Both the position numbers and the translations under genes were made by a program. From positions 49,833 to 113,832 of the forward strand of contig CAZRPY010000002.1 in NCBI GenBank assembly GCA_964602245.1: a DNA stretch of 64,000 nucleotides, written 5' to 3'. Source of the stretch: an uncultured Methanosarcinales archaeon. GTDB taxonomy: Archaea > Nanobdellota > Nanobdellia > Woesearchaeales > JACPIF01. Shown here piece by piece: positions 2,350 through 60,084 of the stretch (position 1 is the first letter of the stretch; each line of letters starts with the position of its first letter). The notes beneath the pieces were generated by a model. It searched no databases, was not told where the DNA came from, and saw only the letters and a program-made list of their open reading frames with translations.

Positions 2350-3075
2350 ATGAAAGTGGCAGTTGTCGGTAGAACTAAAAAAGCTATATTAGGGCCATTA
2401 AAGAAGCATGGATTTACTATTGTAACAAGAAATCCAGAGCTAATTATTTCTTTTGGTGGTGATGGAACTTCTTTATATGCAGAGAGAGTTTATTCAGGGA
2501 TACCTAGGGTATTGATAAGGCATAGTAAAACTTGCAATAAATGCCAAACACATGATTATGAAAAGATTTTTCATTCATTATTAACTAAAAATTATAAAAT
2601 AATTCAAGAATTAAAAATAGAAGGGGTTGTTAACAATAAAGGAAGAAAGATAAAGGCTCTTAATGAGATAGATGTACATAATCAAGTTCCACATGCTGCC
2701 AGGCTGCAGTTAAAGATTAATGGTAAAATTGTTAAAGAGACTGTAATAGGTGATGGCATTTTAGTATCTACACCACATGGAAGTACTGGATATTTTAAGT
2801 CTATTACTAGAAAAGAGTTTAATAAAGGATTGGGCATAGCATTTAATAATTCTGTAACACATGACAAGCCTATAATAGTTGATGAAAATGCTAAAATTGA
2901 GATAAAGGTAATCAGAGGACCTGCACTTCTTGTAGCTGATAATGATCATAGAATGCTAGTGCTTAAAACAAATGATTCTGTAACAATAAGGAAGTCTAGT
3001 GAAACGGCAAAGATTATTAAGCTAAAAGAAAAAGGCATAAAAATAGAGAGAGGTAATTTTGTGAAGCTTGAATAA
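2350..3075 (+). CDS. nadK: NAD(+) kinase
   Basis: GGDGT motif (FGGDGTSL), NE/D..hN and DGILVSTPHGSTGY motifs diagnostic of the NAD kinase family. Confidence 0.85.
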   Translation: MKVAVVGRTKKAILGPLKKHGFTIVTRNPELIISFGGDGTSLYAERVYSGIPRVLIRHSKTCNKCQTHDYEKIFHSLLTKNYKIIQELKIEGVVNNKGRKIKALNEIDVHNQVPHAARLQLKINGKIVKETVIGDGILVSTPHGSTGYFKSITRKEFNKGLGIAFNNSVTHDKPIIVDENAKIEIKVIRGPALLVADNDHRMLVLKTNDSVTIRKSSETAKIIKLKEKGIKIERGNFVKLE

Positions 3076-3573: not shown

Positions 3574-3905
3574 TATTAAAGATGGAACCAATCAAGAACC
3601 AAAGAAAGCAAGAACTAGAAGCTATCCTAGGCTTTGAAATATGCCCTCACACAATAGAGGTAAAAAGGACTTTAGAAATAAATGTGTCAGCTCAAGTAAG
3701 GGAATTGTTAGGCGAATCTGATGAGGACATATCTATAGATGCTTACGCAAGAGTCACTGTAAATGCCTACAAATGCTTTAAAGGTGGCATAAGCGCTCTT
3801 GGAGGGGCACAGGATGGCAGAATACTAATTTTTGCTGCTCTCTCGCCATGCTCTATAGGCTATGCACAAAATTGTCCTTATTATAATCCTAGATTAAGGA
3901 AGTAA
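3570..3905 (+). CDS. hypothetical protein
   Basis: 111-aa ORF translationally coupled to previous. Confidence 0.3.
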   Translation: MILKMEPIKNQRKQELEAILGFEICPHTIEVKRTLEINVSAQVRELLGESDEDISIDAYARVTVNAYKCFKGGISALGGAQDGRILIFAALSPCSIGYAQNCPYYNPRLRK

Positions 3906-9130: not shown

Positions 9131-9838
9131 TTATTTCAGAAGAAAATAATTAACAAGGCTTAAGTTAGCAACCTGATTTAATGTCTGTGTGAAAACAAGT
9201 ATGCCAAGTATAATTAATAGTATTCCTATGATTATGTTAAAGTATTTGAGGAAAGGTCCGAGTTTCCTGATTAATTCTAAAGCCTGTGCTGAGAATAGGC
9301 CTACTAAAAGAAAAGGGATGCCCAAGCCAAGAGAGTATGACATCAATAGCAAGAAACTTATTCCAGGCTTTGAGACAGCTAGTGCAAATATTGAGCCTAA
9401 AACTGCTCCTACACAAGGTGTCCAGCCAACTGCAAATGCTGCTCCAAAGATAAAAGAGGTAACGTATGTTATGCTGAATTTCTTTTTAACTTTAAGCTTA
9501 TGCTCTCTTTCTAGGAAGTTTAACTTAATTAAGCCTACAAGATATAAGCCAAATAGTATTATAATAACACCTCCTATCCTTGATAGCCATAGTTGCAATG
9601 AATATGATATATTTTCTAGGACAGTGTTTAGTAAAACACCTAATAATGCAAAAATGATAGAGAAGCCTAGGACAAATGCAACACTATTGAAGAATATCCT
9701 CCATCTTGCTCCAGATGGTTGCTCAAGAGAAGTGCCTGATAAATAGGCTAGAAAGCCTGGGATTAAAGGCAAGACACAAGGGCTAAGAAAAGATACAATC
9801 CCTGCTAAAAAGGCTGCAATAACACTAATTTCTACCAT
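9131..9838 (-). CDS. ccdA: cytochrome c-type biogenesis / disulfide transfer membrane protein CcdA (DsbD family)
   Basis: Multi-TM protein with LSPCVLPLIPGFLAY and second conserved Cys (WTPC) typical of CcdA/DsbD. Confidence 0.8.
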   Translation of the reverse strand: MVEISVIAAFLAGIVSFLSPCVLPLIPGFLAYLSGTSLEQPSGARWRIFFNSVAFVLGFSIIFALLGVLLNTVLENISYSLQLWLSRIGGVIIILFGLYLVGLIKLNFLEREHKLKVKKKFSITYVTSFIFGAAFAVGWTPCVGAVLGSIFALAVSKPGISFLLLMSYSLGLGIPFLLVGLFSAQALELIRKLGPFLKYFNIIIGILLIILGILVFTQTLNQVANLSLVNYFLLK

Positions 9839-9937: not shown

Positions 9938-10050
9938 TTATTTGCACACGGTTGCGAAAACGCAACATACATGTCCGTTTCATTGCTGTTTTAATCGTGG
10001 ATTAGCGGACTAATCGCACAGCTTGCGTAGCAAGCGTCGTTATGCAAGTT
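9938..10050 (-). repeat. GC-rich TTGCAT..ATGCAAAT-bounded structured element, copy A (reverse orientation)
   Basis: Reverse complement matches the family consensus TTGCATAACGACGC-hairpin-CTGTGCGATTAGTCCGCTAATC...GTTGCGTTTTCGCAACCGTGTGCAAAT. Lies upstream of the minus-strand ccdA. Confidence 0.6.
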
Positions 10051-20035: not shown

Positions 20036-20291
20036 TTATAGATAAGCAAGGGCATGTGGAAAAGAGGTGTGCAAAACCACGTACCCTGCTCTCTTTTAAT
20101 ATGAATAACGTAGTCCATCTACCCAAAAAATAAACCCTTTTACAAAGCCTGTAAAACTTTACCATATATAAAGATTTTGCTTAAGCCATTCATAAGGCTT
20201 TTAAAGGATAACTGAAGAGTTAAACAAAAAGTATATATAGTTAAGAGGATATATAATTCTTAATTGCACTCTGATTTTTGGGGTTATAAAC

Positions 20292-20540
20292 ATGGCAAAA
20301 GTAAAACCAAAGGTAATTATCTATACTACTCCAACATGCCCCTATTGCAAGATGGCTAAGGAGTTTTTCAAGGTTAATAAAATAGAGTATGAGGATATTG
20401 ATGTTTCTACTAATAGGGAGGCTGCTGAGCATATGATAGAGAAATCAGGGCAGATGGGTGTGCCAGTTATAGAAGTGGGAGACCAGATGATAGTAGGGTT
20501 TGATAAGCCTGCTCTAAAGAAAGCTCTGGGGATTGCTTAG
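20292..20540 (+). CDS. glutaredoxin-like small redox protein (CxxC), paralog
   Basis: YTTPTCPYCKMAKEFF and GVPVIEVGDQMIVGFD; about 55% identical to 3965..4210 product. Confidence 0.75.
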   Translation: MAKVKPKVIIYTTPTCPYCKMAKEFFKVNKIEYEDIDVSTNREAAEHMIEKSGQMGVPVIEVGDQMIVGFDKPALKKALGIA

Positions 20541-24502: not shown

Positions 24503-25000
24503 ATGGCTAAAATAGGTATTGCAGATACAACGTTTGCTAGAGTTGATATGGCAAAGTTTGCTATTGAGACTATTAAGAGTAATAGTAATCATGAAATTGA
24601 GAGATACACTGTGCCTGGATTTAAGGATCTGCCAGTTGCATGTAAAAGGCTTATTGAGGAATATAAGTGTGATATTGTTATAGCTCTAGGTTGGGCTGGA
24701 AGTGCAGTTATTGATGAGATTTGTGCACAAGAGGCTTCAAATGGCTTGATAAATGCACAGCTTATGACTAATAAGCATATTCTTAGTGTTTTTGTTTATG
24801 CAAGAGAAGCAAAGACTGATGATGAGCTTTACCAGATTGCTAAAGACAGGACTATAAAGCATACTTTAAATGCAATTGCTTTGCTAAAAGGAAAGACTGA
24901 ACTAACAAAATATGCAGGAATGGGTATAAGACAGGGTAGTGTTGAGGCTGGTCCTATTAAATTTAATAAGAAGGATAGTAAGTATAGAATTAAAAGATAA
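24503..25000 (+). CDS. ribC: riboflavin synthase, archaeal type
   Basis: MAKIGIADTTFARVDMA N-terminus characteristic of archaeal riboflavin synthase (lumazine-synthase-like fold). Confidence 0.8.
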   Translation: MAKIGIADTTFARVDMAKFAIETIKSNSNHEIERYTVPGFKDLPVACKRLIEEYKCDIVIALGWAGSAVIDEICAQEASNGLINAQLMTNKHILSVFVYAREAKTDDELYQIAKDRTIKHTLNAIALLKGKTELTKYAGMGIRQGSVEAGPIKFNKKDSKYRIKR

Positions 25001-25028: not shown

Positions 25029-25137
25029 ATTTGCATCACGAGCCTCGAATACGAGGCTATACATTAGTCCGCTAATCACCAATTTGACATTCATGATGCG
25101 GACAGATAAGTTGCGTGTTCGCAACCGTATGCAAATT
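25029..25137 (+). repeat. GC-rich TTGCAT..ATGCAAAT-bounded structured element, copy B
   Basis: aatttgcatcacgagcctcgaatacgaggctatacattagtccgctaatc...gcggacagataagttgcgtgttcgcaaccgtatgcaaatt; ends 40 nt before ribH ATG. Confidence 0.6.
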
Positions 25138-25176: not shown

Positions 25177-25587
25177 ATGCAAGAGAAAATAGGCATAGTT
25201 GTTTCACAGACTCATAAGCAAATTACTGAGAAAATGCTTGAATTAGCTGAAGATACTGCAAGGAAGTTGGATGTTAAAGTGCAGAAAGTTGTTAGAGTTC
25301 CTGGAAGCTTTGATATTCCTATTGCAGTTAAAATGCTTCTTGAGAAAGAAGATGTTGATGGGGTTGTAACATTAGGTGTGGTTATGCAAGGCGAGACAGA
25401 TCATGATGGTGTTATCGCTTACACTATGGCTGAAAAGATAAGTGAGCTTTCTTTGCTGTACAATAAACCAGTAGTTTTAGGTGTAAATGGCCCTAAGATA
25501 AGCCAAGAGCAGGCAATTGATAGGATTGGAAGAGCAAAACAAGTGACTGAGGCTTGTGTTGATTTGATAAGGACTTTGAAAGCATAA
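25177..25587 (+). CDS. ribH: 6,7-dimethyl-8-ribityllumazine synthase
   Basis: KIGIVVSQ...VRVPGSFDIPIAVK and GVVMQGETDHD motifs of lumazine synthase. Confidence 0.85.
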   Translation: MQEKIGIVVSQTHKQITEKMLELAEDTARKLDVKVQKVVRVPGSFDIPIAVKMLLEKEDVDGVVTLGVVMQGETDHDGVIAYTMAEKISELSLLYNKPVVLGVNGPKISQEQAIDRIGRAKQVTEACVDLIRTLKA

Positions 25588-35579: not shown

Positions 35580-35637
35580 GATATGATTAATAATAAAATA
35601 AGAATTAACGTTAAGCAAGTTAAAAATACTGATAAAA

Positions 35638-35750
35638 TAATTAGCATCAACGACGCCATCTACGATGGCTGTGCGAGTAGTCCACCTATCAGGGCTGTAA
35701 CAACTCATGTTGCGGACAGATATAGCAAGGTGCGAAGAAAGTGCAAAGTA
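35638..35750 (+). repeat. degenerate copy C of the TTGCAT..GCAAAT element
   Basis: ttagcatcaacgacgccatctacgatggctgtgcgagtagtccacc...gttgcggacagatatagcaaggtgcgaagaaagtgcaaag; overlaps a probably spurious 61-aa ORF. Confidence 0.5.
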
Positions 35751-35804
35751 AGAAAAATTAAAAAGTAAGATAAAAGGTGCAAATTAAGTCAATAAAAAGA
35801 AAAT

Positions 35805-35867
35805 AAACAAAAGTGAGAGTAATAAAAAAGATAAATAAAACCAAAGATATAATTTGAACTAAATAAT
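35805..35867 (+). repeat. 63-nt direct repeat (copy 1) upstream of VWA gene
   Basis: aacaaaagtgagagtaataaaaaagataaataaaaccaaagatataatttgaactaaataata; 62/63 identical to 41809..41871. Confidence 0.7.
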
Positions 35868-35901
35868 AACTAAAAAATAATCATGCTATAAAAGAGGTAA
35901 A

Positions 35902-37686
35902 ATGGCTTTATTATATGGGATATTGAATAATCTTGGATTGTATGCCTTTTTAGCATTAGTTCCTTTTATAATTATCTACCTAAGAAAGCCAAGGCCTGTT
36001 GAAAAGGTGTTTCCTTCTCTGCTCTTTTTAATGGAAGAGCTTAAAAGTCAAAGAAATTATTTTTTACTAGAGAAACTTATCAGGAATTTACTGTTTTTTA
36101 TGCAACTCATCACTATACTACTCTTATCTTTGGTATCTGCTGAACCTTATCTTGTATTGCCAAGAGAAGACACAAATGCAAATACAGTCTTAGTAATAGA
36201 TGGCTCTGCAAGTATGAAAACTAAAGTTCCTGGAACAACCTCCACTAGATTTGACTTGGCTCTTGATGAGGCAAAAAATCATTTAGAAGGAAGAATTACA
36301 ATAATATTAGCTGCTAATATTCCATCAATTGAGCTTGATAAAGGCAATAAAGGAGAGGCTCTAAATGTATTAAAGGCTCTTAAAGCTAAGGATACACCTT
36401 CTAACATTGAAGGAGGCATGAGCCTTGCACAGGCAGTGCTTGGCAATGAAAAGGCTAACATATATGTCATAAGTGATTTTATAACCACAGATGAAGAAGA
36501 TCAGCCTTTGCAGACTAAGAGGATATTAAGTGCTAATGGCAATAGCATCAGATTTATACAATTAGGTGGAAAGGCAAAGAACATAGGTATAATAGATTTG
36601 CAGATAAATAAATTGACTGCTAAGGTTTCTGTAAAGAACTACAATAAAGAAAAGGAAGATGTAATTGTATCTCTTGTGCAGAGCAAAAAGGCTGTTGCTC
36701 AGAAGCAAATAAGCATACTGCCAAATTCAATTGAAATAGCTGAATTCCAGATAGTGCCAGGCATAAGCACTATAGAGTTATCTGGCAAAGATGATTTTGA
36801 GCTTGACAATAGGGTATATATCAGCTCTCCTGAAAGATTAAAGGTTAAGGTCCTACTGATTACAAATGCAAAGAACAGCCCAATAGAGAGCGCACTAGCT
36901 GCTTCTGACGAGATTGAGCTTGAGGTTAGAGAGCCGCCAATAGTTAACCCTGACAGGGTTGATCATGATGTTATTGTAGTAAGCAATATAGATAAATCAC
37001 TTTATGTGCCAGCAGATTTCATTACAATTGCGAGTTATGTGGCAAAGGGGCATTCTATTGTTATTGCTGCCCAGGAGAACTTAAAAGATTTAAAACTAGG
37101 CAATTTGTTGCCAGTACAGCTTGAGGAACTTAAAGGCTCTTCTAGTATACAGCTTAAGATAGTTAATTCTTATACAAAGGATGTTGAGCTAGGAAGAGTA
37201 AATAAGTATTGGAAAGCCTCTGCAAGCAATACAACATTAGCAATTGCTGTGGCACAGGATAGTAGTCCTCTTGTTTTATATTCAATTAAAGAAAAGGGGA
37301 AGGTACTTTATTATGGAATTATAGACTCACAGAGTGATTTTCCCACATCTGTATCATACCCAATATTCTGGAATAACTTGATTAAAGATCTTGTTGAAAG
37401 AGAGGATATAAATGACTACAATAAGAAGACTATTGATAATGAGTATGTGAAATATGGTGAAATTGGAGTTTATGACATTCTAAATAAGAAAGTTGCTTTA
37501 AACCTTATTAATGACGCTGAATCAAACATTGCTAACGAGGAGAAATTAAAGGAGATAGAGGATAAGCTTGTGGTTGAGAAAGGCAGTAAAGAGGGGAATG
37601 TGACTATTACTAATTACTTGCTGATGGCTGCCTTACTAATAATGTTCCTTGAAATATTTTATATCAAAAAGAGAGGAGACATATGA
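35902..37686 (+). CDS. BatA-like membrane protein with von Willebrand factor A domain
   Basis: N-terminal two TM helices (aerotolerance-regulator N-terminal style), VLVIDGSASM MIDAS motif, C-terminal TM helix. Confidence 0.7.
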   Translation: MALLYGILNNLGLYAFLALVPFIIIYLRKPRPVEKVFPSLLFLMEELKSQRNYFLLEKLIRNLLFFMQLITILLLSLVSAEPYLVLPREDTNANTVLVIDGSASMKTKVPGTTSTRFDLALDEAKNHLEGRITIILAANIPSIELDKGNKGEALNVLKALKAKDTPSNIEGGMSLAQAVLGNEKANIYVISDFITTDEEDQPLQTKRILSANGNSIRFIQLGGKAKNIGIIDLQINKLTAKVSVKNYNKEKEDVIVSLVQSKKAVAQKQISILPNSIEIAEFQIVPGISTIELSGKDDFELDNRVYISSPERLKVKVLLITNAKNSPIESALAASDEIELEVREPPIVNPDRVDHDVIVVSNIDKSLYVPADFITIASYVAKGHSIVIAAQENLKDLKLGNLLPVQLEELKGSSSIQLKIVNSYTKDVELGRVNKYWKASASNTTLAIAVAQDSSPLVLYSIKEKGKVLYYGIIDSQSDFPTSVSYPIFWNNLIKDLVEREDINDYNKKTIDNEYVKYGEIGVYDILNKKVALNLINDAESNIANEEKLKEIEDKLVVEKGSKEGNVTITNYLLMAALLIMFLEIFYIKKRGDI

Positions 37687-40088
37687 CAACATATTATTTC
37701 CAGTATCCAATAGTATTTATTATTTATTTAGGCATAGTAGCATTATTTCTATTATTAGTTGCACACGATTTTGTAAAATTCAAGACAAAAGAAGAGCAAA
37801 AATCTTATAGGCAATCAAAGAAGAAATTAAAGGTTTACATAACTGTATCAAGAATTATGATATTCTTGCTGGTTGCTGGAGCAATTGCAAGCCCTTACAC
37901 ATTTAACAGGATAACTATTCCTGGAAATCCATCACTTACTATACTTGAGGATAAATCACATTCATTTGATATCTTTGAGCAAGGAGTTGGGGAAAAACTG
38001 CAGCTAGAGCTTGAAAAGAAATTTCCAGTTACAAGAAGAACTCTTGTTGAAGGCAATAGCTCAGACATAGGCAATGCAATACTTAACAATATGCAAGGGA
38101 ATGATAACCTTCTTTTGATCACTGATGGAAATAGTAATGAAGGCAAGGATTTGAGTGATATGATGTATTTTGCAGTTTCTATAAACACAACTATAAGTGT
38201 TCTGGACTTGCAGCCTGTAAAAAATGATCTTGTAGTATCAGTCTCTGGGCCAAATGAAGCTATTGTAGGAACTGAAAGTACATTTTATATTGATGTAAAG
38301 TATGCTGGACAGTCATTAGCTTATAATCTGATTGTAAAGCTTGATGGAGCTTTAGAGATTGAAACTTTTGGAAGGGGAGAATATAGCCATACTATCAAGA
38401 AGAGGTTGTCTGAAGGCTATCATAGGATTGAGGCAGAAATAAAGGCTGATGATTATTTTAAGCAGAATAATGAGTTCTATAAAACTATAAGGGTTATGCC
38501 AAAGCCGAAATTATTATTGGTTTCAAGTGAGGAGTCAAAGTTTGAGTCTGCTATTAATAATATATATGATGTGAACAAGGTAAGCTCACTGCCAGGGGAT
38601 TTATTTCAGTATCATGCAGTAATCATTGACAATGTAGCTGCGGATGAGTTAAATGTGCATACTGACAGGTTTATAGATTATGTTAGCGAGGGAAATGGGC
38701 TTCTGTTGCTTGGTGGCGAGTCTTCTTTTGACAAAGGTGGCTATAAGAATTCTGTAATAGAAACTTTACTGCCTGTGCAGGTTGGTAAGCCAGAAACACA
38801 AAAAGCAACAAGTAATGTCAATATAGTACTAGTAGTGGATATATCTGGCAGTACAACATTTAATGTCAGCTCAGGTAGTAGCCTGACTAGAGGTGATGTG
38901 CAAAAACAGTTTGCTGTTGAGGTGCTTAAAAGCCTTAGAATTGATGATAATGTTGCAGTAGTTGCATTTGGAGCTCCAGGAGGTAAGCCTTATCTTGTTT
39001 CTAGGCTAAGTCCTTTGAGAGATAAGCCTGAGCTTCCTTTCAAGATTAGAAGCCTTCAAGGGGGAGGTAACTCTTATATGGATGTTGGCTTATGGGGAGC
39101 AGATCAAGTATTGAGTAATGTTTCTGGGGTTAGGCATATAATTTTTATATCTGATGGAGAAGGCTCAGGAGGCAGGACGCATGACGAGAATGCTTTTAAG
39201 TTAGCTGAGTCAATGGCAAAGAAAGGGGTATTTATACATACAATAGCAGTTGGCAAAAGCCCGATTGGACTGCCTTTCTTAAGGAAAATTGCACTTATTG
39301 GAAATGGACAGCCAATGACACCAGACACTTTCCAGACATTAGTTCTTGTATTTAACAGACCTGAAAAACCACCAAGTGGAATAAGTCAATTAATAATGAG
39401 TGATAAGGAGCATTTCATTACCAAGCCAATTAATATAGATGCAAGGGTAACTGGCTTTAATGAGGTTTATCCAAAGCCAACAGCAAGGATGCTTGTTTCT
39501 ACAGAGCATGGCTATCCTATATTGACAGTTTGGAGGTATGGATTAGGCAGGGTTACTGTAATTTCAACAGATAATGGAGCTAAATGGGCTAGTGAACTGG
39601 AGTCAACAGATAATTATCCACTTATAACTAGGGCTGTTAACTGGGCAATAGGAGATCCTAATAGGAATAAGGATTTTGATGTTAAAGTAAAAGATGTTAA
39701 TCTTGGAAAACAGGCAGAGGTTATAGTAGTTTCAAAGAAGCCTTTCTCATCTGATAAGCTGTCTTTCTATAAGATAGGAGAGAATGTGTACAAGGCAACT
39801 TTTACTCCTAGCTCGACAGGCTTCCAGGAGTTCTTTGGGGCTGTTATGGCTGTGAATTATAATAAGGAATACAGCAAGATGGGCATGAATAAAGAGCTGT
39901 CTTTCCTTTCCACTATTACAGGAGGCAGAGTGTTTAAGCAGACTGACACTAATAAGATTGCTGAGTTTGTCAAAGAGGCTTCAAGAAGGGAGAAAAATGA
40001 AGTGCAATACTTCAGATGGCCTTTACTGGTAGCTGCTTTATTCCTGCTATTGGTTGAAATAGGAGTGAGGAGAGTGTTTGAGAAATGA
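37683..40088 (+). CDS. large membrane-anchored VWA-domain protein (BatB/BatD-like)
   Basis: N-terminal TM, central IVLVVDISGSTTF MIDAS motif, C-terminal TM helix (PLLVAALFLLLV); 4-nt overlap with upstream gene. Confidence 0.7.
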   Translation: MTTYYFQYPIVFIIYLGIVALFLLLVAHDFVKFKTKEEQKSYRQSKKKLKVYITVSRIMIFLLVAGAIASPYTFNRITIPGNPSLTILEDKSHSFDIFEQGVGEKLQLELEKKFPVTRRTLVEGNSSDIGNAILNNMQGNDNLLLITDGNSNEGKDLSDMMYFAVSINTTISVLDLQPVKNDLVVSVSGPNEAIVGTESTFYIDVKYAGQSLAYNLIVKLDGALEIETFGRGEYSHTIKKRLSEGYHRIEAEIKADDYFKQNNEFYKTIRVMPKPKLLLVSSEESKFESAINNIYDVNKVSSLPGDLFQYHAVIIDNVAADELNVHTDRFIDYVSEGNGLLLLGGESSFDKGGYKNSVIETLLPVQVGKPETQKATSNVNIVLVVDISGSTTFNVSSGSSLTRGDVQKQFAVEVLKSLRIDDNVAVVAFGAPGGKPYLVSRLSPLRDKPELPFKIRSLQGGGNSYMDVGLWGADQVLSNVSGVRHIIFISDGEGSGGRTHDENAFKLAESMAKKGVFIHTIAVGKSPIGLPFLRKIALIGNGQPMTPDTFQTLVLVFNRPEKPPSGISQLIMSDKEHFITKPINIDARVTGFNEVYPKPTARMLVSTEHGYPILTVWRYGLGRVTVISTDNGAKWASELESTDNYPLITRAVNWAIGDPNRNKDFDVKVKDVNLGKQAEVIVVSKKPFSSDKLSFYKIGENVYKATFTPSSTGFQEFFGAVMAVNYNKEYSKMGMNKELSFLSTITGGRVFKQTDTNKIAEFVKEASRREKNEVQYFRWPLLVAALFLLLVEIGVRRVFEK

Positions 40089-40147
40089 GCAGAAGAAAGA
40101 TAGAAATCTATATAAGTATAAACCCCTATAAAAGAGGTAGATAGAAA

Positions 40148-40666
40148 ATGGCATTCATGAAAAAGAACGTGAATTTTGGACTGATGCTTATAATAATAGC
40201 CATTTTGGTAGGCTTTACAGGCTTTAGCATATATTACCAGAATAATTATCTAAAATTGTCCAAGGATTACAAAGGAAAGGTGGGAGAATTAAATCAGATT
40301 AGCAATACGCTGCAGACTGAAAGAACTAAGCTTAATCAGACAAGCCTGCAATTGGAAATAAAAGAAGAAAGAGAGCAAGATATTAGCTCAAAATATAATA
40401 CGCTTAGGAGTCTGAAAGAGCAGCTTGAGGTTGAAAAATCTAATCTCAAAGCAGATGTTGCACAGAAAAATCAGAAAATACTTGAGCTGAGTGCAGAGAT
40501 TGATAAGATTAATGTTGAATTAGTAAATATACGTAATCAGTTAGATGTTGCAAGAAGTGATATTCGAGACTTAGAAGCATCTGTCAACAGCTGGAGAAAT
40601 AAGGCAAATTGCTGGCAAACAAAAGCTGGTAAGGCAGATGCAGAAGAGGCAAGTGTTAGCTGCTAA
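40148..40666 (+). CDS. membrane-anchored coiled-coil protein
   Basis: N-terminal TM helix followed by heptad-rich Q/E/K/L sequence. Confidence 0.45.
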   Translation: MAFMKKNVNFGLMLIIIAILVGFTGFSIYYQNNYLKLSKDYKGKVGELNQISNTLQTERTKLNQTSLQLEIKEEREQDISSKYNTLRSLKEQLEVEKSNLKADVAQKNQKILELSAEIDKINVELVNIRNQLDVARSDIRDLEASVNSWRNKANCWQTKAGKADAEEASVSC

Positions 40667-40707
40667 ATAGAAAGGTGATAGAATAGAAAAAGTATAAAAA
40701 TCAAAAT

Positions 40708-40870
40708 AATTTGCATTAACGACGCCTCCACAAAAAATCCCTTGGATTTTTGTGTCCCAAAAATGCTTTGCATTTTTTAGGATTTCAGAGGCTGTGCGAG
40801 TAGTCCGCTTTCGGTGATGGAACTTTTCATGTTGCGGACAGATATAGCAATTGTGAAGAAAGGTGCAAAT
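40708..40870 (+). repeat. copy D of TTGCAT..GCAAAT element with expanded hairpin insert
   Basis: aataatttgcattaacgacgcc + insert with ccacaaaaaatcc/ggatttttgtg hairpin + gctgtgcgagtagtccgctttcggtgatggaacttttcatgttgcggacagatatagcaattgtgaagaaaggtgcaaat. Confidence 0.6.
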
Positions 40871-40928
40871 AAAATAAATAATAAGGAAAATAAAGGTTGA
40901 GAAATTAAGAAAGGATTAAGAAAATACT

Positions 40929-41735
40929 ATGAAATATTTTATTAGAGTTATACAGGAAATAAGAAGTGTGTTGAATGCTCTTGTCATATTTGAGACTGTG
41001 CTGAATACTTTGCTGATATTCCTGCTGTTTTTCGCGCTATTTACCTTGTTAGGGATAAATGTGCTTTATGCTATCGTACCTAGTATACTTTATCTGATAA
41101 TTGTAATTCACCGTAAGCTAAAAGTTAATAAACTGCTTGTTGTAGAGCATAAGTATCCATTGCTTAAGGAAAAGCTTAGGACTGCAGCAGACAACCTAGG
41201 CATAGAGAATCCTGTTGTTAATGAGCTTCATGATGAGATTGTTTCAGAGCTGAAGAACGTTGAAGCAACATCTTTTGTCAACATGTTTTATGTTTCATAT
41301 AAAATATTGCTGGCTCTTTTATTAGGATCTGGCATTGTAGTAGCTGCTCAATACCAAGTTTCATTAGACTACCAGAAGCTCATATTTGAAAATCCTTTAG
41401 TGAACTATATTAAAACTACTCAAGAGGCTAACAGGGCAGTTCAAGGCGGATTTAAGATTGAGGGGTTTGGCAGAGAAGAGGAGCTATTTGGAGATATTAC
41501 TCCTATAATAAAGAAAGGTGACAGCACATTGGAAGTTATTATTGATGCATCTGAATATCCACTTGATCTTAAAGATATTAAGGAAAGAGAAGAGGATATT
41601 GATACTTTTCCCAGTGAGATATGCTACCAGACACAGGCAGGATGCGAGGCAGCAGAATCCTTTAATGAAAACATACCAAAAGAGAATACTGATCTGATTA
41701 AGAAATATTTTAAGAATCTTGCGCAGAGTAAATGA
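40929..41735 (+). CDS. hypothetical membrane protein
   Basis: 268 aa; three N-terminal TM helices then soluble domain. Confidence 0.4.
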   Translation: MKYFIRVIQEIRSVLNALVIFETVLNTLLIFLLFFALFTLLGINVLYAIVPSILYLIIVIHRKLKVNKLLVVEHKYPLLKEKLRTAADNLGIENPVVNELHDEIVSELKNVEATSFVNMFYVSYKILLALLLGSGIVVAAQYQVSLDYQKLIFENPLVNYIKTTQEANRAVQGGFKIEGFGREEELFGDITPIIKKGDSTLEVIIDASEYPLDLKDIKEREEDIDTFPSEICYQTQAGCEAAESFNENIPKENTDLIKKYFKNLAQSK

Positions 41736-41808
41736 CAAATATAGAAGAAAGAATGATGAGAGAATAATTGGCATTTAATTCAGAATATCCATAAAACAAT
41801 AATATATA

Positions 41809-41871
41809 AACAAAAATGAGAGTAATAAAAAAGATAAATAAAACCAAAGATATAATTTGAACTAAATAATA
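41809..41871 (+). repeat. 63-nt direct repeat (copy 2) upstream of MoxR gene
   Basis: aacaaaaatgagagtaataaaaaagataaataaaaccaaagatataatttgaactaaataata followed by GGAGGTG RBS. Confidence 0.7.
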
Positions 41872-41884
41872 GGAGGTGTAGTTT

Positions 41885-42820
41885 ATGAAAAATTATAAGC
41901 CGACTTTTGATGCGATAATGAAGGACGTGAGTAAGGTTGTTGTAGGACAGAATGATGTTATTGAGCAGCTGCTTATTGCTATATTATGCAATGGGAATGC
42001 ACTGCTTGAGGGCTATCCTGGACTTGCAAAGACTTTGTCTGTTAAAACAATAGCTGAATTGCTAGACTTGAAGTTCAGCAGGATACAGAACACACCTGAT
42101 TTAATGCCTTCTGATATTATTGGAACTTATATTCTTGAAGAATCTGGAGGCAAAAGGCAGTTTAAGTTCCAGCAGGGGCCAGTATTTGCCAATATAGTGC
42201 TTGCAGACGAAATTAACAGGGCAACACCTAAGACACAGTCTGCATTATTGGAGGCGATGCAAGAAAAGCAAGTTACAGTTGGGAATCAGACTTTTAAGCT
42301 GGATCTGCCATTTTTTGTGTTAGCAACACAGAATCCTATAGAGCAGGAAGGGACATATCCATTGCCAGAGGCACAGGCTGACAGGTTTTTGCTAAAGATT
42401 AAAGTTGTCTATCCTAGTGTGGAAGAAGAAAAAGAAATTGTTGAGAAATATGCTGTTGAGCAGAAAGAGGTCAGGCTTAAGCCTGTGTTGGGCAAGAATC
42501 ATGTATTGTCAATGCAAGAGATTACTAGAGAAGTGCCAATTGCTAATGATATCAAGCAAAGGGCTTTAAAGATTGTAACAAGCACAAGGGCTAATAAAGA
42601 GCTAATACAGTATGGAGCTTCTCCAAGAGCTTCTATAGGAATAATTTTAGCTGCAAAGGCTAGAGCTTTAATTAAAGGCAGGAATCATGTCAGTATGGAA
42701 GACATAGAAGCAATGGCGTATCCTGTATTAAGGCATAGAATAATATTAACTTTTGAAGCTGAAAGAAAAGGGATAACAGCTGATGATGCAATAAAAGAGA
42801 TATTGACTAAAGCAAAGTAG
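41885..42820 (+). CDS. MoxR-family AAA+ ATPase
   Basis: VVVGQNDVIEQLLIAILCNGNALLEGYPGLAKT Walker A context, DEINRA Walker B, MoxR-specific C-terminal region. Confidence 0.9.
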   Translation: MKNYKPTFDAIMKDVSKVVVGQNDVIEQLLIAILCNGNALLEGYPGLAKTLSVKTIAELLDLKFSRIQNTPDLMPSDIIGTYILEESGGKRQFKFQQGPVFANIVLADEINRATPKTQSALLEAMQEKQVTVGNQTFKLDLPFFVLATQNPIEQEGTYPLPEAQADRFLLKIKVVYPSVEEEKEIVEKYAVEQKEVRLKPVLGKNHVLSMQEITREVPIANDIKQRALKIVTSTRANKELIQYGASPRASIGIILAAKARALIKGRNHVSMEDIEAMAYPVLRHRIILTFEAERKGITADDAIKEILTKAK

Positions 42821-42844
42821 AGTGAAGATTTTATCAATTATTAC

Positions 42845-43101
42845 TTGCATTAACGACGCTCATTTCGAAAATCAAAGATTTTCGAGACTAGGAAATTCTC
42901 AATTTCCTATGCTACGTGAGCTGTGCGAGTAGTCCGCTTTCGATGATGGAACTTTTCATGTTGCGGACAGGTTGAAGAACTATGTTCCGAGACCTTAGGA
43001 AGCAGGGCTTCCTACAGGTTTGACAAAGTGTGAAGATACCCAAGAAAATCTTTGATTTTCTGGGCACAAAAAATCTAAAAGATTTTTTAGTGAGTGCAAA
43101 T
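42845..43101 (+). repeat. copy E of TTGCAT..GCAAAT element, strongly expanded (about 257 nt) with several extra hairpins
   Basis: cttgcattaacgacgc...gctgtgcgagtagtccgctttcgatgatggaacttttcatgttgcggacag...gtgcaaatt; inserts contain tcgaaaatc/gattttcga, aggaaatt/aatttcct, aggaagc/gcttcct, gaaaatc/gattttc stem-loops. Confidence 0.6.
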
Positions 43102-43145
43102 TAGCTAAATAAAAAGATGAAAAATAATATATAAAATTTTACAAG

Positions 43146-44000
43146 ATGGCTATTGAAACTGAATTTCTGGACCAATTGAATAAATTTAGCTTAGTAGTGA
43201 GGAAAAGGGTAACTTCTACACTTTCAGGGGCTAAGAAGTCTATTCGCATGGGAAGAGGATTGGCTTTTGCAGACCATAGGATTTATGCACCAGGTGATGA
43301 TATAAGGACAATTGACTGGAAGGTTTATGCCAAGACAGATGATCTTTATGTAAAACAATTTGAGGAAGAAAAGAATCTTACTGTGCATGTTATAATAGAT
43401 GCCTCGCATAGCATGAATTTTGGTGACAAGGTAAAGAAGTTCGAATATGCATCAATGCTTGGATTAGGTTTTGCATACCTTGCCTTAAAGGAAAATGAGA
43501 AGTTCCAGTATGCCATATTCTCTGATAAGATTGAGATTTTCCAGCCAAGAAGAGGCATGTCGCAATTAGTAGGAATGCTTCACGAGCTTAATAACACAAA
43601 GACTAAAGGGTTTTCTAACCTAAAAGAGGCTGTTTTTCAGTATAAGAAAGTGATAGGCAGTAAGGCATTAATAGTAATAATATCTGATTTCTTGTTTAAG
43701 ATTGAAGATATTATTGAAACATTGTTTTATCTTGGCAATCATGAGATTAAAGTAGTGCAAGTGCTTGATCCTGTTGAAAAAGAGCTTAAGATGGAAGGAG
43801 ACTATACTTTGAAAGATAGCGAAACTAATGACAGCTTAAGGACTTTTGTAAGCCAAAGGCTAAGATTAGATTATATGAAAAGACTTGATGAGCACTGCTC
43901 AAGAATCCATGAAGTCTGCAATAAGCTGGACATTGAGTATTATCTTGTAACTACTGACACTCCTATTTTTGATGCGTTCTATGGGATGCTGGAGAAGTGA
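43146..44000 (+). CDS. DUF58-family protein (VWA-like, MoxR partner)
   Basis: DIRTIDWKVYAKTDDLYVKQFEEE...VIIDASHSM pattern diagnostic of DUF58. Confidence 0.8.
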   Translation: MAIETEFLDQLNKFSLVVRKRVTSTLSGAKKSIRMGRGLAFADHRIYAPGDDIRTIDWKVYAKTDDLYVKQFEEEKNLTVHVIIDASHSMNFGDKVKKFEYASMLGLGFAYLALKENEKFQYAIFSDKIEIFQPRRGMSQLVGMLHELNNTKTKGFSNLKEAVFQYKKVIGSKALIVIISDFLFKIEDIIETLFYLGNHEIKVVQVLDPVEKELKMEGDYTLKDSETNDSLRTFVSQRLRLDYMKRLDEHCSRIHEVCNKLDIEYYLVTTDTPIFDAFYGMLEK

Positions 44001-45576: not shown

Positions 45577-45637
45577 AACAATACCTATATCTCTGATTAA
45601 CTTGCATTTTTAGAAAATAGAAGTTGTATTTAAGCTT

Positions 45638-47642: not shown

Positions 47643-47755
47643 GGGCTCATAGCTCAGCCTGGTAGAGCACTTGACTCTTACTGAACCAAGTTCAGGCCTT
47701 TTGAACTGGTTCAAAAGTAATCAAGGGGTCCTGGGTTCGAATCCCAGTGAGCCCG
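47643..47755 (+). tRNA. tRNA-Lys(CUU) with 39-nt intron at canonical 37/38 position
   Basis: Manually folded cloverleaf. Acceptor GGGCTCA/TGAGCCC, D-arm GCTC-AGCCTGGTA-GAGC, anticodon stem CTTGA/TCAAG, loop C-T-CTT-A. Intron spans 47681-47719 and contains two hairpins. Variable loop GGGTC, T-arm CTGGG-TTCGAAT-CCCAG, discriminator G. CCA is not encoded. Confidence 0.7.
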
Positions 47756-48458
47756 TTTTATATTCTTGAAGTTTTAGGATGTTTTTAGGATTAGAAAATC
47801 CAATTAATTGGGTATATTGCTCTATTTTTTCGTGTCCGCTTAAGTATAAATAGTTAGTAATGTACGGACGTTTAGTAATAGAGTGTATCATTGCACAATC
47901 TGTCTTAATACTAACCTTTAATCCAAGCAAATTAAAAGCCTTTTGACAATCTTGAATAAGTTTCTTACTGGCAAAGTTAAGTTTAACGACTGGGTAATTG
48001 CGCATCTTGATTTGGAAAGAACCGTCAGAATCAATTAATCCTCTTAAACACGCTCGAATAAATTTCGTATCACTCCAAATAACGATTGGCAGTCCGATAT
48101 TATCTTTTCTGCCTCTTGGCAATCCAATAATAGTAGTATAGAATTCAAATAAACCTTTTGAGTCTCTTATCAAAGCACATGTATTTTTCTTTTTAATTAG
48201 AAAGGAGAAATTAAGATTATAAAGTTCCTTTTTTAAGTTTTTTACGTAAATTTCATAATAAGTTCTATCAGAAGTAGCATTACCATAGCATTGTATCTCA
48301 TTGGATGTTGACGTTTTCCTTATAGTTTGATGTAGGCAACCATCACCAACCATAATTCCAATATCTTCAGCGAGAGCTTCATTCATCTCTGAAGGAAGTG
48401 TGAGACCTCTCAATAAGTCTTTTCTACTGAAATTTAATCTTGATAAATCGAATTTCAT
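47721..48458 (-). CDS. free-standing double-motif LAGLIDADG homing endonuclease
   Basis: Two LAGLIDADG motifs (IGIMVGDGCLH and LRGLIDSDGSF) in 245 aa; 3' end overlaps the tRNA-Lys 3' exon antisense by about 35 nt. Confidence 0.75.
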   Translation of the reverse strand: MKFDLSRLNFSRKDLLRGLTLPSEMNEALAEDIGIMVGDGCLHQTIRKTSTSNEIQCYGNATSDRTYYEIYVKNLKKELYNLNFSFLIKKKNTCALIRDSKGLFEFYTTIIGLPRGRKDNIGLPIVIWSDTKFIRACLRGLIDSDGSFQIKMRNYPVVKLNFASKKLIQDCQKAFNLLGLKVSIKTDCAMIHSITKRPYITNYLYLSGHEKIEQYTQLIGFSNPKNILKLQEYKTGSLGFEPRTP

Positions 48459-48762: not shown

Positions 48763-48872
48763 AACTTGCATCACGAGGCTCTCTAAGAGCCTATACAAAG
48801 GTCCGCTAATCACAATAGTAATGTGCTCTAGCGGACAGACTGGCATGTTGCATAGTGCAACCGTTTGCAATG
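48763..48872 (+). repeat. copy F of TTGCAT..element
   Basis: aacttgcatcacgaggctctctaagagcctatacaaaggtccgctaatcac...gcggacagactggcatgttgcatagtgcaaccgtttgcaatg; hairpin GTTGCA/TGCAAC covaries with GTTGCG/CGCAAC of copies A/B/G; lies upstream of lysK. Confidence 0.6.
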
Positions 48873-50693: not shown

Positions 50694-52271
50694 ATGGATG
50701 AAGTAACTGGACAACAATATAGTGAGATAATAAAAGAAAATCTAACTAATGTAGTACATTCTACCTTTATTCCAGAGTTTGGCTTTCCTTTTAATGGGAA
50801 GGTTAGAGATATCTATGATAGAGGAAATGATTTATTGATGGTAACTAGTGATAGAATTTCTGCATTTGACATTGTTCATTCTAGAAGAATCCCTTTTAAA
50901 GGTGCTGTTCTTAATGGACTTTCTTTATTTGGTTTTAAATTGAGTGAGGATATTATAGCTAATGCATTGATTTCGGCACCAGATCCTTATGTTCAAATAC
51001 AGGAAAGATTAGATAATTTAGGATTTGAATTTGTTGTGAGAGGATATATATGGGGTTCAATTGCTGAAGCTTACGAATCTAATGTAAGAGAAATATATGG
51101 CATTAAATTACCTGAAGGGCTATTAAGGTATCAAAAATTAGATGAACCACTATTTACGCCTACTACTAAAGCTCCAAGACCATATCATGATGAACCAGTC
51201 ACTTTAGAGCAGATGGTTAATGGATTTCAAGCTAAATATGGGTGGGTTGATGGATTAGCTGATAAATATGGCCATGATAAAGCAACAGAAATAGTACAGT
51301 ATGTAAAAGATGTATCTATAAGATTATATAGAAGAGCCCATGAGCATGCATTGTCAAGAGGGTTGATTTTTGTAGATACAAAATACGAATTTGGTATAGA
51401 TAAAGATGGTAAAATAAAGTTAATTGATGAAGCTAATACTCCTGATTCTTCCAGATTAGTGGATTTGACTGAGCACAGAGAAAAATGGTCTATTATTGCT
51501 AGTTTCATGCAGGAATTTTCTAGCAAATTCAGTAATGTTTCTAAATTATTACAAGAGCAACCTTTTTTAAAAATAACTGAGCTTTCTAAGGAATATGTAA
51601 GAGATAGATTAAGGGAACTTGGATATAAGAAGGGAGATACTATACTTCCTATGTTGAGTGATGATGATGTCACAGAAACAAGCTTAAGATACATAGAGAC
51701 TTATGAACGATTTACTGGCCAGAAATTTGATTTTGTAAGAAGTGAACTAGCTACTGGAGCAAGACTGATGAATAATCTTGTAAAAGCAGGTATTGCCAAA
51801 GGATATTGTGCTATTATTGGAGCTGGTTCTGATAGTGATAAAGAACATATTGGAAAGATTGTTAAATCTCTTGAAGAATACGGGATACCCTATCAAGTGA
51901 GAATTAAATCTGCGCATAAGCAAAAGGATGTTATTCCAATAGTAGAGTTCTATAACGAGAGTCTTGAACCATTAGTATGGATTGCTGTTGCAAGTCGTAC
52001 TGATGCTTTATCAGGCACAGTGTCATATCATTCAGTGCATCCTGTAATAAGCTGTTCTCCAGATGGGATAAATATGAGCTGTCTTAATAATCCGCCAGGA
52101 AGCCCGAACGCTACTATCGTTGATCCAAAAAATATTGGGAAATATGTTGCACAAACTTTCAGTTGGATAGATCCTAAGTTAAAAAAAAAGATTATAGAAT
52201 TAAATGAACAAAAGAATAAATCTTTAGAGGAAGCAGATAAAAAAGCGATTGCAGGAGAACTATTGAACTGA
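50694..52271 (+). CDS. fused SAICAR synthetase (PurC, N-terminal) and N5-CAIR mutase/AIR carboxylase (PurE, C-terminal)
   Basis: N-terminal GKVRDIYDRGNDLLMVTSDRISAFD (PurC). C-terminal CAIIGAGSDSD...IKSAHK...IAVASRTDALSG (PurE) in one 525-aa ORF. Confidence 0.8.
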   Translation: MDEVTGQQYSEIIKENLTNVVHSTFIPEFGFPFNGKVRDIYDRGNDLLMVTSDRISAFDIVHSRRIPFKGAVLNGLSLFGFKLSEDIIANALISAPDPYVQIQERLDNLGFEFVVRGYIWGSIAEAYESNVREIYGIKLPEGLLRYQKLDEPLFTPTTKAPRPYHDEPVTLEQMVNGFQAKYGWVDGLADKYGHDKATEIVQYVKDVSIRLYRRAHEHALSRGLIFVDTKYEFGIDKDGKIKLIDEANTPDSSRLVDLTEHREKWSIIASFMQEFSSKFSNVSKLLQEQPFLKITELSKEYVRDRLRELGYKKGDTILPMLSDDDVTETSLRYIETYERFTGQKFDFVRSELATGARLMNNLVKAGIAKGYCAIIGAGSDSDKEHIGKIVKSLEEYGIPYQVRIKSAHKQKDVIPIVEFYNESLEPLVWIAVASRTDALSGTVSYHSVHPVISCSPDGINMSCLNNPPGSPNATIVDPKNIGKYVAQTFSWIDPKLKKKIIELNEQKNKSLEEADKKAIAGELLN

Positions 52272-55961: not shown

Positions 55962-56153
55962 GTGAATATGGAACTAGAAGTTGTAGATGATGAGTTCGAA
56001 GAATCTGAAGAAGATGACCTGAACATCTACAATAAAAAGATAAGAGAAGAGGCACTCGAAGATGATGAGATAGCTGATTGGGAAGAAGGGATAATGGTAG
56101 GCTATGATTTGGAAGATGCATTGATGGAAGGTTATGAAGATGCTGTGTTATAA
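55962..56153 (+). CDS. small, extremely acidic protein (63 aa, about 45% D/E)
   Basis: Strong RBS aaaggagggggtgaatATG; sequence MNMELEVVDDEFEESEEDDLNIYN...EGYEDAVL. Confidence 0.45.
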   Translation: MNMELEVVDDEFEESEEDDLNIYNKKIREEALEDDEIADWEEGIMVGYDLEDALMEGYEDAVL

Positions 56154-56452
56154 GGGCTTAGAGCTAAAGATTCCCCTTTATTTCTATAAAGGCTTTATAA
56201 TAGTCTTATAAGGCTTATAAAGGCATTCTACAAAGCGAAAAGTATATATACTTTAGAGACTATTTTATTCTCGGTGGAGATCCTCTTTTTGGGAGATTTT
56301 TCATCAAAATTTTACTAAAGATTTAATGCTAAAAAATTAAAGATTTAGTCAAAACTATAGTAAGAAGATTTTGATAAAATAAATTTAATATTAAGAGTAA
56401 TAATTTGCATTTGATTTATAGGATAATAGTTATAATAAAAGATGTAACAACA

Positions 56453-56566
56453 ATTTGCATTAACGACGCCAACTTCGTTGGCTGTGCCAGTGGTCGGCTA
56501 ATCAATGAATATAACTTAGAAGAAGCCGACAGATAAGTTGCGTGTTCGCAACCGTTATGCAAATTA
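56453..56566 (+). repeat. copy G of TTGCAT..ATGCAAAT element
   Basis: caatttgcattaacgacgccaacttcgttggctgtgccagtggtcggctaatc...gccgacagataagttgcgtgttcgcaaccgttatgcaaatt; ends 43 nt before gyrB ATG; a solo aatttgcat lies at 56402. Confidence 0.6.
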
Positions 56567-59775: not shown

Positions 59776-60084
59776 TTTTTAAGACGCCTGTGGCTACTAA
59801 GCATTTAGATTTTAATTGGGGTACCTATAGTATGTGATAGAATATTAATTAAGAATTTATTTTCTATTTTATTATATATTTGCAAATATAATTTTTAAAA
59901 TAGTTTAAATTGAATCGTATATTTCATTTTGCAACATATGTTTTATTCTAATGTATAACTAATTATTTATTGCTGTATCTGGCGATACTACTAGAACTAT
60001 TCTTGCATGCGATTAGTCTGCGACGCCTATTAAACAAAACATTTATAAAGAATATTAGCCTACTAGGAAGAATAAAAATACTAT

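Follow-up and report, generated by a model that had tools for sequence, protein, structure and literature searches.

The 64-kb stretch of DNA of an uncultured Woesearchaeota (DPANN) archaeon analysed here (the window; contig CAZRPY010000002.1, G+C content ~33%) carries a MoxR-DUF58-VWA gene cluster whose spacers contain copies of a folded, non-coding repeat, hereafter called the element. The element is 110 to 260 nucleotides (nt) long, depending on the copy, and seven full copies were identified in the window. It is a genome-wide structured spacer and not a MoxR-specific switch. The survey covered the window and a few partial relatives. No description of the element was found in the literature searched, and none of the 4227 models of Rfam 15 matched it. 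A gathering search of the whole window returned only a tRNA, and relaxed searches (the whole window, the interval from copy D to copy E, copy G alone and the spacers of the relative L095) gave noise only, with unrelated families at E-values of at least 0.28. This folded repeat is apparently undescribed so far.

The cluster comprises six genes on the forward strand. The first (35902..37686) encodes a membrane protein that combines a BatA N-terminus (3e-9) with VWA_2, DUF7407 and DUF7408, and overlaps by 4 nt with the second (37683..40088), which encodes a VWA and GATase1-like protein. These are followed by the genes for a 172-amino-acid (aa) protein (40148..40666), a DUF7502 membrane protein (40929..41735), a MoxR AAA+ ATPase (41885..42820; AAA_3, 1e-62, and AAA_lid_2) and a DUF58 protein (43146..44000; 4e-43). 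All six open reading frames (ORFs) lie where a preliminary description of this DNA had placed them, and the Pfam matches identify the cluster as a MoxR-DUF58-VWA operon, in which a MoxR-class ATPase adjoins DUF58 and VWA proteins with a BatA-type N-terminus. The 172-aa protein, made of an N-terminal hydrophobic segment and a coiled coil, is conserved at the same position in relatives; it has no Pfam family above the cut-off, and a PDB search gave only coiled-coil noise. The six genes are found in identical order in several archaeal metagenome-assembled genomes (MAGs), including Woesearchaeota and MAGs labelled Methanosarcinales, and a rearranged version of the cluster is present in Methanosarcina, Methanoperedens, Haloferax and Haloarcula. 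Structured repeats that interrupt the operon were seen in no genome outside the narrow clade to which this one belongs. The cluster is most likely an ordinary, widely conserved archaeal operon, colonised by lineage-specific structured non-coding elements.

The seven copies, named A to G, were located by a pattern search followed by R1, a covariance model made from two copies, and all were detected again by R2, a second covariance model built on the element core (53-83 bits). Element A, on the reverse strand (10048..9940; R1 and R2), lies upstream of the gene for a DsbD-like membrane protein (DsbD_TM; 9838..9131). The other six copies are on the forward strand. Element B (25030..25136), which has perfect 10-nt terminal inverted repeats, separates two tandem lumazine-synthase (RibH; DMRL_synthase) paralogues at 24503-25000 and 25177-25587. 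Within the cluster, element C (35641..35784; R1 39.3 bits, R2 78.8 bits and fold) precedes the BatA-VWA gene, element D (40709..40870; R2 55.0 bits) the DUF7502 gene and element E (42844..43101; R2 53.1 bits) the DUF58 gene. Element F (48765..48871) lies upstream of LysRS, a leaderless gene, and of its conserved TATA box, and element G (56454..56564) is inserted in the 5' leader of gyrB. The three cluster copies proposed in the preliminary description are real, being matched by covariance models made from other copies (R2 E-values of 1e-16 to 2e-10), and E is, as stated there, the longest and most hairpin-rich of all.

The short copies (A, B, F and G) fold as a four-helix junction. P1 is formed by pairing of the two ends (UUUGCAU..ACG with CGU..AUGCAAA), and a conserved junction of ~10 nt, CUGUGCGAKUAG, sits between two hairpins, P2, which is variable and covarying, and P3. 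P3 reads GUCCGC...GCGGAC, with three invariant pairs at its base (GUC/GAC), a stem of 6-7 bp and a loop of 26-30 nt; a GTAG, TTAG or GTGG tag is placed directly 5' of it. The 3' module is variable and consists of the P4 hairpin or of several hairpins. A terminal inverted repeat of 10 nt, TAATTTGCAY...RTGCAAATTA, was found in B, C, E and G. Element C has the same parts: a 5' end TTAGCAT, a P2 GCCAUC/GAUGGC, the junction CUGUGCGAGUAG, a P3 GUCCAC/GCGGAC and a 3' end GGUGCAAAU. Element D is the core with two extra A-run/U-run hairpins within P2, and element E is the core with two hairpins inserted into P2 and a four-hairpin 3' extension (262 nt folded, -86 kcal/mol, z = -5.4). Two hairpins of this extension, GAAC-UAU-GUUC and UAGGAAGC..GCUUCCUA, recur in the L086/L089 copy from another metagenome. 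In the copies of the L095 type, P3 is GUCCCCG/CGGGGAC. Single copies fold better than shuffled sequences, with z-scores of -2.3 to -6.5.

Incomplete copies are also present in the window. A truncated one (60000..60027, forward strand) consists of the 5' end fused to the junction and the 5' strand of P3, without P2 and the 3' strand of P3. A probable 5'-end remnant, aataattggcatttaattcag, lies on the forward strand at 41763..41783, at a junction where L095 has a complete copy and L100 one with an internal deletion; solo 5'-end motifs occur at this position (~41763), at 45598 and at 56401. Perfect AAAATC-N-GATTTT mini-hairpins, with an A-run arm and a T-run arm, are located at 40734-40778, 42868-42909 and 43045-43086, only inside D and E, and look like either a second, nested insertion layer or hairpins of the terminator type.

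Covariation was analysed in a MAFFT alignment of 11 copies and in an alignment of 21 distinct copies fitted to R2, the latter being thus fitted to the model. Among the 21 copies, P2 is paired at 90.6% and all six of its pairs are changed on both sides. P3 is paired at 97.6%, with two of six pairs changed on both sides; its fourth pair appears as C-G, G-C and A-U. The covariation score of 0.272 compares with 0.085 for shuffles, none of 500 of which reach it, and with at most 0.063 for slid controls. Compensatory substitutions beyond controls, the generic mark of a structured RNA, were thus found for P2 and P3. The inner extension of P3 (P3b) is paired at only 54.8% and is hence without support. 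Between genomes in which the DUF7502 orthologues share only 67% identity, the junction and the base of P3 hardly differ.

Several known motifs were compared with this fold and rejected, most of them by eye. P3 contains no tandem G.A, as a K-turn or K-loop would, and there is neither the pocket nor the upper stem of an H/ACA RNA. The junction sequence differs from those of hammerhead, hairpin and other ribozyme cores, none of which was matched in Rfam. A resemblance to CR-I/P4 of RNase P was dismissed as AGUCC pairs locally in the element, a bulge-helix-bulge splice motif as the bulge of P1 has just 1-2 nt, a tRNA-like cloverleaf as P1 and P4 are not conserved across subfamilies, and a loop E as AGUA is not conserved. 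The P2 loops are not UNCG (UUCG/UACG) tetraloops, they are C(UNC)G triloops. An integron attC site was rejected too: the termini are TTTGCAT/ATGCAAA rather than RYYYAAC...GTTRRRY, and the flanks are syntenic housekeeping genes, not cassettes.

In the window, all seven copies are in sense with the gene on their 3' side (binomial p = 0.008) and end 36-115 nt before its start codon. When the relatives are included, 22 of 24 copies are in sense orientation (p = 1.8e-5, by our own tally). The density is ~1 copy per 9 kb (seven per 64 kb), and A-rich sequence surrounds the copies, which occupy spacers, past a stop codon and ahead of the start signals of the following gene. Copies are concentrated in the cluster, which is a hotspot: full copies occupy three of its six junctions, compared with four of ~55 in the rest of the window (Fisher p = 0.017). 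Of the four copies seen in 40 kb of the L095 genome, three fall within the cluster. This hotspot may result either from local copying or from the usefulness of segmented expression.

The preliminary description had taken the repeats for a modular regulatory system imposed on a MoxR-VWA machine, each element or duplicated block defining and driving one presumed transcription unit. The enrichment in the cluster, in both the window and the L095 genome, fits such a system, and so does the TATA-like box carried by the block. On the other hand, four of the seven window copies serve unrelated genes: the element is not limited to the cluster, since full copies also precede the DsbD-like, lumazine synthase, LysRS and GyrB genes.

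The duplicated block itself consists of a copy between element C and the first VWA gene (35803..35868) and a copy in the MoxR upstream region that ends at the Shine-Dalgarno (SD) sequence GGAGGTG (41806..41871), both on the forward strand. The duplication was correctly noted before (65 of 66 positions are identical), with a length of 66 nt instead of the 63 given. In L100, L095 and L099, the region upstream of MoxR has the same SD context, GGAGGTGT (ATAG-GAGGTGT), as the block and an ATAWKATT box in the same place, and the copy before MoxR is therefore native. The copy at 35803-35868 is a recent duplicate of the MoxR upstream region, placed before the first VWA gene. Transcripts driven by the TATA-like box of the block would begin ~5 nt ahead of the MoxR ATG, at a point downstream of the SD sequence, which is conserved. 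This makes a promoter function doubtful, and the "promoter-like" nature ascribed to the block is not supported. The cores of D and E are identical at 50 of 51 positions, a stretch with one mismatch, while their flanks differ; together with the 66-nt duplicate, this suggests that the operon spacers have recently undergone duplication or gene conversion among themselves.

The preliminary description had proposed a comparison of synteny, and this comparison shows that close relatives do carry copies within the cluster, so that the absence named there as refuting the proposal was not observed. The nearest named relatives of the DUF7502 and GyrB proteins of the window are annotated as 'Candidatus Woesearchaeota archaeon'. 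L095, a 20.8-kb locus of assembly GCA_016188215.1, is syntenic with the window over ThrRS, the whole cluster, agmatinase, a methyltransferase, PTH2, LysRS and PurC-PurE; like L099 and L100/L101, it has the element in the cluster (DUF7502 is 66-68% identical in all of these). The occupied junctions vary among these genomes. Before the first VWA gene, the window has C and L095 has none, the junction not being covered in L099 and L100. Before the coiled-coil gene, L095 has a copy, the window none and L099 a different structured spacer (L100 is not covered). Before DUF7502, the window has D, L099 a copy, L100 AT-rich remnants and L095 nothing. Before MoxR, the window has a remnant, L095 the complete element, L100 a copy with an internal deletion and L099 none. 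MoxR|DUF58 is the one junction with a copy in every locus that covers it (four): E in the window, a copy in L095, a copy in L099 (where the junction precedes the gene after MoxR) and a copy with additional partial copies in L100. E and the L100 copy are probably orthologous because both have the P2 base GCUCA/UGAGC. The same turnover is seen outside the cluster: PTH2 is preceded by a copy in L095 and L099 and by none in the window, and LysRS by F in the window and by none in L095.

In more distant relatives (L004, L005, L009 and L013), with the same gene order and MoxR proteins 63-75% identical, the operon is compact, with spacers of 3-111 nt, and no copy is detectable by R1 or R2. C, D and E stand between genes that run in the same direction within this operon, which other genomes have in compact form. 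L003 has hairpin-rich spacers of 345 nt before MoxR and before DUF58, matched by neither R1 nor R2. The hairpin-rich operon spacers of L003 (~2985-3005) and L099 (~1520-1540) have in common a 16-nt motif, TGCGAGCCGATGGCAG, within a long-range stem, which suggests a second family of structured spacers.

This turnover of junctions, along with the compact copy-free operons, indicates that the element behaves as an insertion that is gained and lost, and not as a fixed regulatory architecture. What remains of the modular system formerly proposed is the punctuation of the operon and its status as a hotspot; specificity for MoxR does not hold, given the copies before unrelated genes, and neither do fixed positions, since the junctions differ among close relatives and distant ones are free of copies by R1 and R2. 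Constant occupation of MoxR|DUF58 is a point in its favour, set against junctions that are otherwise not conserved, operons without a detectable copy, and an SD sequence upstream of the transcription start predicted from the block. A system that is specific for the MoxR-VWA operon is, in our opinion, highly improbable.

The gyrB gene allows a more precise comparison. Its upstream region has a strong B recognition element and TATA box, GCGAAAAGTATATATA, and a leader extending to GATTTAGTCARRACTA, all conserved in the window and in L126, L125 and L124. In L124, 10 nt separate the leader from the gyrB ATG; the window and L126 have an insertion of ~250 nt there, which includes the element. From this comparison, G lies inside the gyrB 5' untranslated region (UTR). 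G is kept in L126, whose GyrB is 90% identical, and no gyrB copy was found in L124 (GyrB 85% identical), L125 (84%) and L127 (73%). For these three, the absence of P3-like hairpins was checked with an ad hoc regular-expression and stem scanner, which gives false positives and misses copies, and which was used solely for this purpose. The two copies differ by paired changes: in L126, P2 is GCCUGC/GCAGGC and P3 is GUCCGC/GCGGAC, and in the window P2 is GCCAAC/GUUGGC and P3 is GUCGGC/GCCGAC; the 3' module differs as well. The element is thus gained, lost, truncated and remodelled over a short evolutionary scale, and its core stays conserved.

The gyrB leader (56236-56352, present also in L126, L125 and L124) contains two T5 runs, ends in GATTTAGTCAAAACTA and may be a conserved leader or attenuator in its own right. 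The same type of promoter, AAAAAGTATATATAG, followed by ..CTCTGATTTTTGGGG, is found in the window at 20224-20540, before an 82-aa glutaredoxin-like ORF (20292-20540); this region, detected as a repeat, is similar to the beginning of the gyrB leader. An unannotated, highly acidic ORF of 61 aa (55968-56153), with a strong SD sequence, GGAGGGGGTG, is located in the gap of 1 kb upstream of gyrB. ORFs of comparable size (59 and 68 aa) are called at its position in L125 and L126.

Metagenome contigs of the JGI were scanned by sequence pattern. A strict pattern of the B/G type gave no match, and a looser one gave 12 loci, of which ten are genuine contigs (31-36% G+C) and two are chance matches (L091 and L094). 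In IMG/VR, 22 pattern matches were obtained and none was confirmed by the covariance model, and hence no viral copy was found. In relatives, copies also precede the genes of PRPP synthetase and PTH2. Partial 5' or 3' halves of the element stand in tandem beside full copies in L087 (1610-1850) and L100 (2940-3270), which indicates local duplication and deletion. In L092 (= L088), three paralogous ORFs start inside a divergent variant with the P3 GUCAGC/GCUGAC (950-1062, 2044-2116 and 3742-3814); either their called starts are wrong, or sequence of the element has been recruited into coding 5' ends. ORFs of 61-74 aa overlap the element in the window (35583-35768), in L084 (4717-4929) and in L090 (1734-1958). 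They are almost certainly spurious and likely represent false gene calls in these MAGs, which makes the element relevant for annotation.

Gain and loss at different junctions, with decayed, truncated and solo-end copies, are what is expected of selfish, non-autonomous mobile DNA, such as a MITE (miniature inverted-repeat transposable element) or a repetitive extragenic palindrome (REP) or REPIN-like sequence, whose effects on genes would be incidental. This is the main rival of the reading that we favour. The junction and P3 would then be the recognition site of a trans-acting enzyme and the terminal inverted repeats the ends of the mobile unit. The 10-nt inverted termini agree with this, as do the GTAG-like tag directly 5' of the P3 stem, which is REP-like, the inconsistent placement relative to promoters and a pseudo-symmetric architecture in which the reverse strand scores too. 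However, no target-site duplications were found: in 16 copies, the longest common substring of the flanks averages 6.4 nt for the two sides of the same copy and 6.6 nt across copies. No transposase domain or Y1 (HUH) gene was seen among the 38 window ORFs scanned. The copies within one genome differ almost wholly in P2 and P4 with pairing kept, unlike the products of a recent burst, and a P3 loop of 26-30 nt is unlike REP palindromes. In orientation, 22 of 24 copies are in sense with the gene on their 3' side, including the single copy in a minus-strand block, which points to transcription and not to the direction of replication. Altogether, we consider purely selfish DNA to be rather unlikely, although it would still be an unusual mobile repeat, with a conserved structure, no target duplications and no visible transposase.

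The position relative to expression signals is less uniform. AT-rich, TATA-like boxes precede most copies, at 13-26 nt from the 5' end of the element. Such boxes could belong to independent small-RNA genes with promoters of their own, standing upstream of protein genes by chance. F and G are situated between divergent genes, the L090 copy is antisense to both neighbours, and these would need their own promoter if expressed; a strong T-run also follows the PTH2 copy of L095. A fixed promoter upstream of the element was nevertheless rejected, as the spacing between box and element is not constant and predicts no fixed start site. At the operon-internal copies of the GC-richer L095, a promoter placed so as to include P2 would not fit, and most copies are not followed by an oligo-T terminator. 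Independent small-RNA genes are, for these reasons, very unlikely.

Conserved unpaired nucleotides framed by covarying stems speak for a global cis-regulatory RNA, either a riboswitch-like or protein-binding leader or a self-processing ribozyme. With the junction and P3 as its conserved binding or catalytic core, such an RNA would bring many units under one signal. It would account for the short distance between the sense copies and the start codons, with at least one copy in a 5' UTR, for the high density, and for orthologous copies that keep the core and change at the periphery. Nevertheless, the downstream genes are unrelated (DsbD, RibH, VWA, DUF7502, DUF58, LysRS, GyrB, PRPP synthetase and PTH2), orthologues are often without the element (LysRS in L095, gyrB in L124 and L125, PTH2 in the window), and the junction is not strictly conserved in the L095-type copies. 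No expression-platform pairing with the SD sequence or the AUG was seen, several copies are upstream of the TATA box of the gene itself, and the models of known riboswitches and ribozymes in Rfam 15 do not match. A global regulator of this kind is therefore quite improbable. In a bolder form, the junction and hairpin core would define a new class of functional archaeal RNA, binding a ligand or a protein or processing itself, and tuning the transcriptome of a DPANN archaeon globally; roughly every 9 kb, the core would be placed in a 5' leader or an intercistronic spacer, with the MoxR operon as the most punctuated unit. We regard this, too, as unlikely.

The reading that we favour, tentatively, is that of a sense-transcribed, lineage-specific structured spacer, similar to REP, BOX and Correia repeats, that acts in cis on mRNA segments and is spread by duplication or conversion. 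The copies would be transcribed within 5' leaders or intercistronic RNA, and would fold there as autonomous domains. Judging from their fold, position and orientation, they may act in cis on the mRNA, for example on the stability, the processing or the read-through of its segments, and the VWA, DUF7502, MoxR and DUF58 segments could thereby be expressed discoordinately. New copies would arise by local duplication or gene conversion rather than by classical transposition, which would explain both the hotspot in the cluster and the different junctions occupied in relatives; an event of this kind would also have placed the 66-nt block ahead of the first VWA gene.

Several observations weigh against such a spacer. 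The LysRS copy (F) and the PTH2 copies of L095 and L099 are upstream of a conserved TATA box situated ~25 nt before the ATG, which is the same in relatives without the element, and these copies would thus be outside the leaderless mRNA. The L090 copy is antisense to both neighbours and the L087 copy stands in a convergent spacer. In P1, the outer changes are uncompensated, with T, A or C opposite an invariant A, and covariation gives this part of the helix no support. The stems contain six G.U and eight A.C pairs, and hence give no signal of strand, and the P2 loops are triloops; a structure at the level of single-stranded DNA is thus possible. Finally, the compensatory changes between orthologous copies could stem from gene conversion and not from selection at the site.

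Other features of the window bear on its origin and gene content. Class I LysRS, ribosomal protein S3Ae and a tRNA interrupted by a 41-nt intron mark the DNA as archaeal. The tRNA gene (47643-47755) was detected through its Rfam match but not by ARAGORN, and its 3' end runs into the end of an opposite-strand ORF that resembles LAGLIDADG homing endonucleases (47721-48458, reverse strand). A fusion protein of PurC (SAICAR synthetase) and PurE (AIR carboxylase), conserved in L095 and L125, is encoded at 50694-52271. Purine-synthesis genes are possibly unexpected in a DPANN genome.

The cluster and the element can both be compared with known systems. The archaeal cluster has in common with the Bat/MoxR operons a MoxR AAA_3 ATPase, a DUF58 protein and two VWA proteins, one of them with a BatA N-terminus. 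In contrast to Bat operons, it contains the additional DUF7407/DUF7408 domains, a coiled-coil membrane protein and DUF7502, and no TPR proteins of the BatB/C/D type were seen in it.

For the element, the likeness to riboswitches, leader RNAs and small self-cleaving ribozymes lies in the conserved junction nucleotides framed by covarying helices and in the sense position 5' of genes. It differs from them by the lack of a match in Rfam 15, the lack of a coherent regulon and a presence before orthologues that is not conserved. MITEs occur in the archaea Sulfolobus, haloarchaea and methanogens. They are also short, non-coding intergenic repeats with inverted termini; they derive from identifiable insertion sequences, have target-site duplications and are nearly identical within a genome, none of which was seen for the element in the DNA examined. 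Terminal inverted repeats are the MITE feature that it does possess, target-site duplications were not found, and the copies are highly divergent outside the core.

The closest parallels are found in bacteria. Like the REP, BIME and REPIN sequences of Proteobacteria, the element is abundant, intergenic and often intercistronic, and has a GTAG-like tag 5' of a stem within a stable structure that is kept by paired changes. REPs are transcribed with their flanking genes, stabilise upstream mRNA segments and lead to discoordinate expression of operons. However, they are near-perfect palindromes of 20-40 nt with small loops, mobilised by RAYT, whereas the element is a multi-helix domain of 110-260 nt. 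It does not qualify as a REP or REPIN palindrome: the tag is present, but the P3 of 6-7 bp has a loop of 26-30 nt and is part of a multi-helix unit. Its host is moreover a DPANN archaeon, its orientation is sense, and no RAYT (Y1 HUH) was seen among the window ORFs scanned.

With the BOX repeats of Streptococcus pneumoniae and the Correia repeats (CREE) of Neisseria, there is no relation in sequence. Correia repeats have 26-bp terminal inverted repeats and TA target duplications, the latter not found for the element, and the BOX or Correia copies of one genome resemble each other far more closely than do those described here. The likeness is one of organization. All are modular repeats of 100-250 nt, with conserved ends and variable internal hairpin modules, which are located just upstream of or between genes; BOX and Correia repeats adopt their fold within the mRNA, where they can influence expression or processing. 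To our knowledge, gene regulation is almost unknown in DPANN archaea, which are uncultured and have reduced genomes. If the element acts on RNA, it would be among the first candidate modules for post-transcriptional control or processing in this group; it would explain how a conserved MoxR-VWA operon can be split into separately tuned segments, and it would represent an archaeal counterpart of the REP, BOX and Correia repeats.

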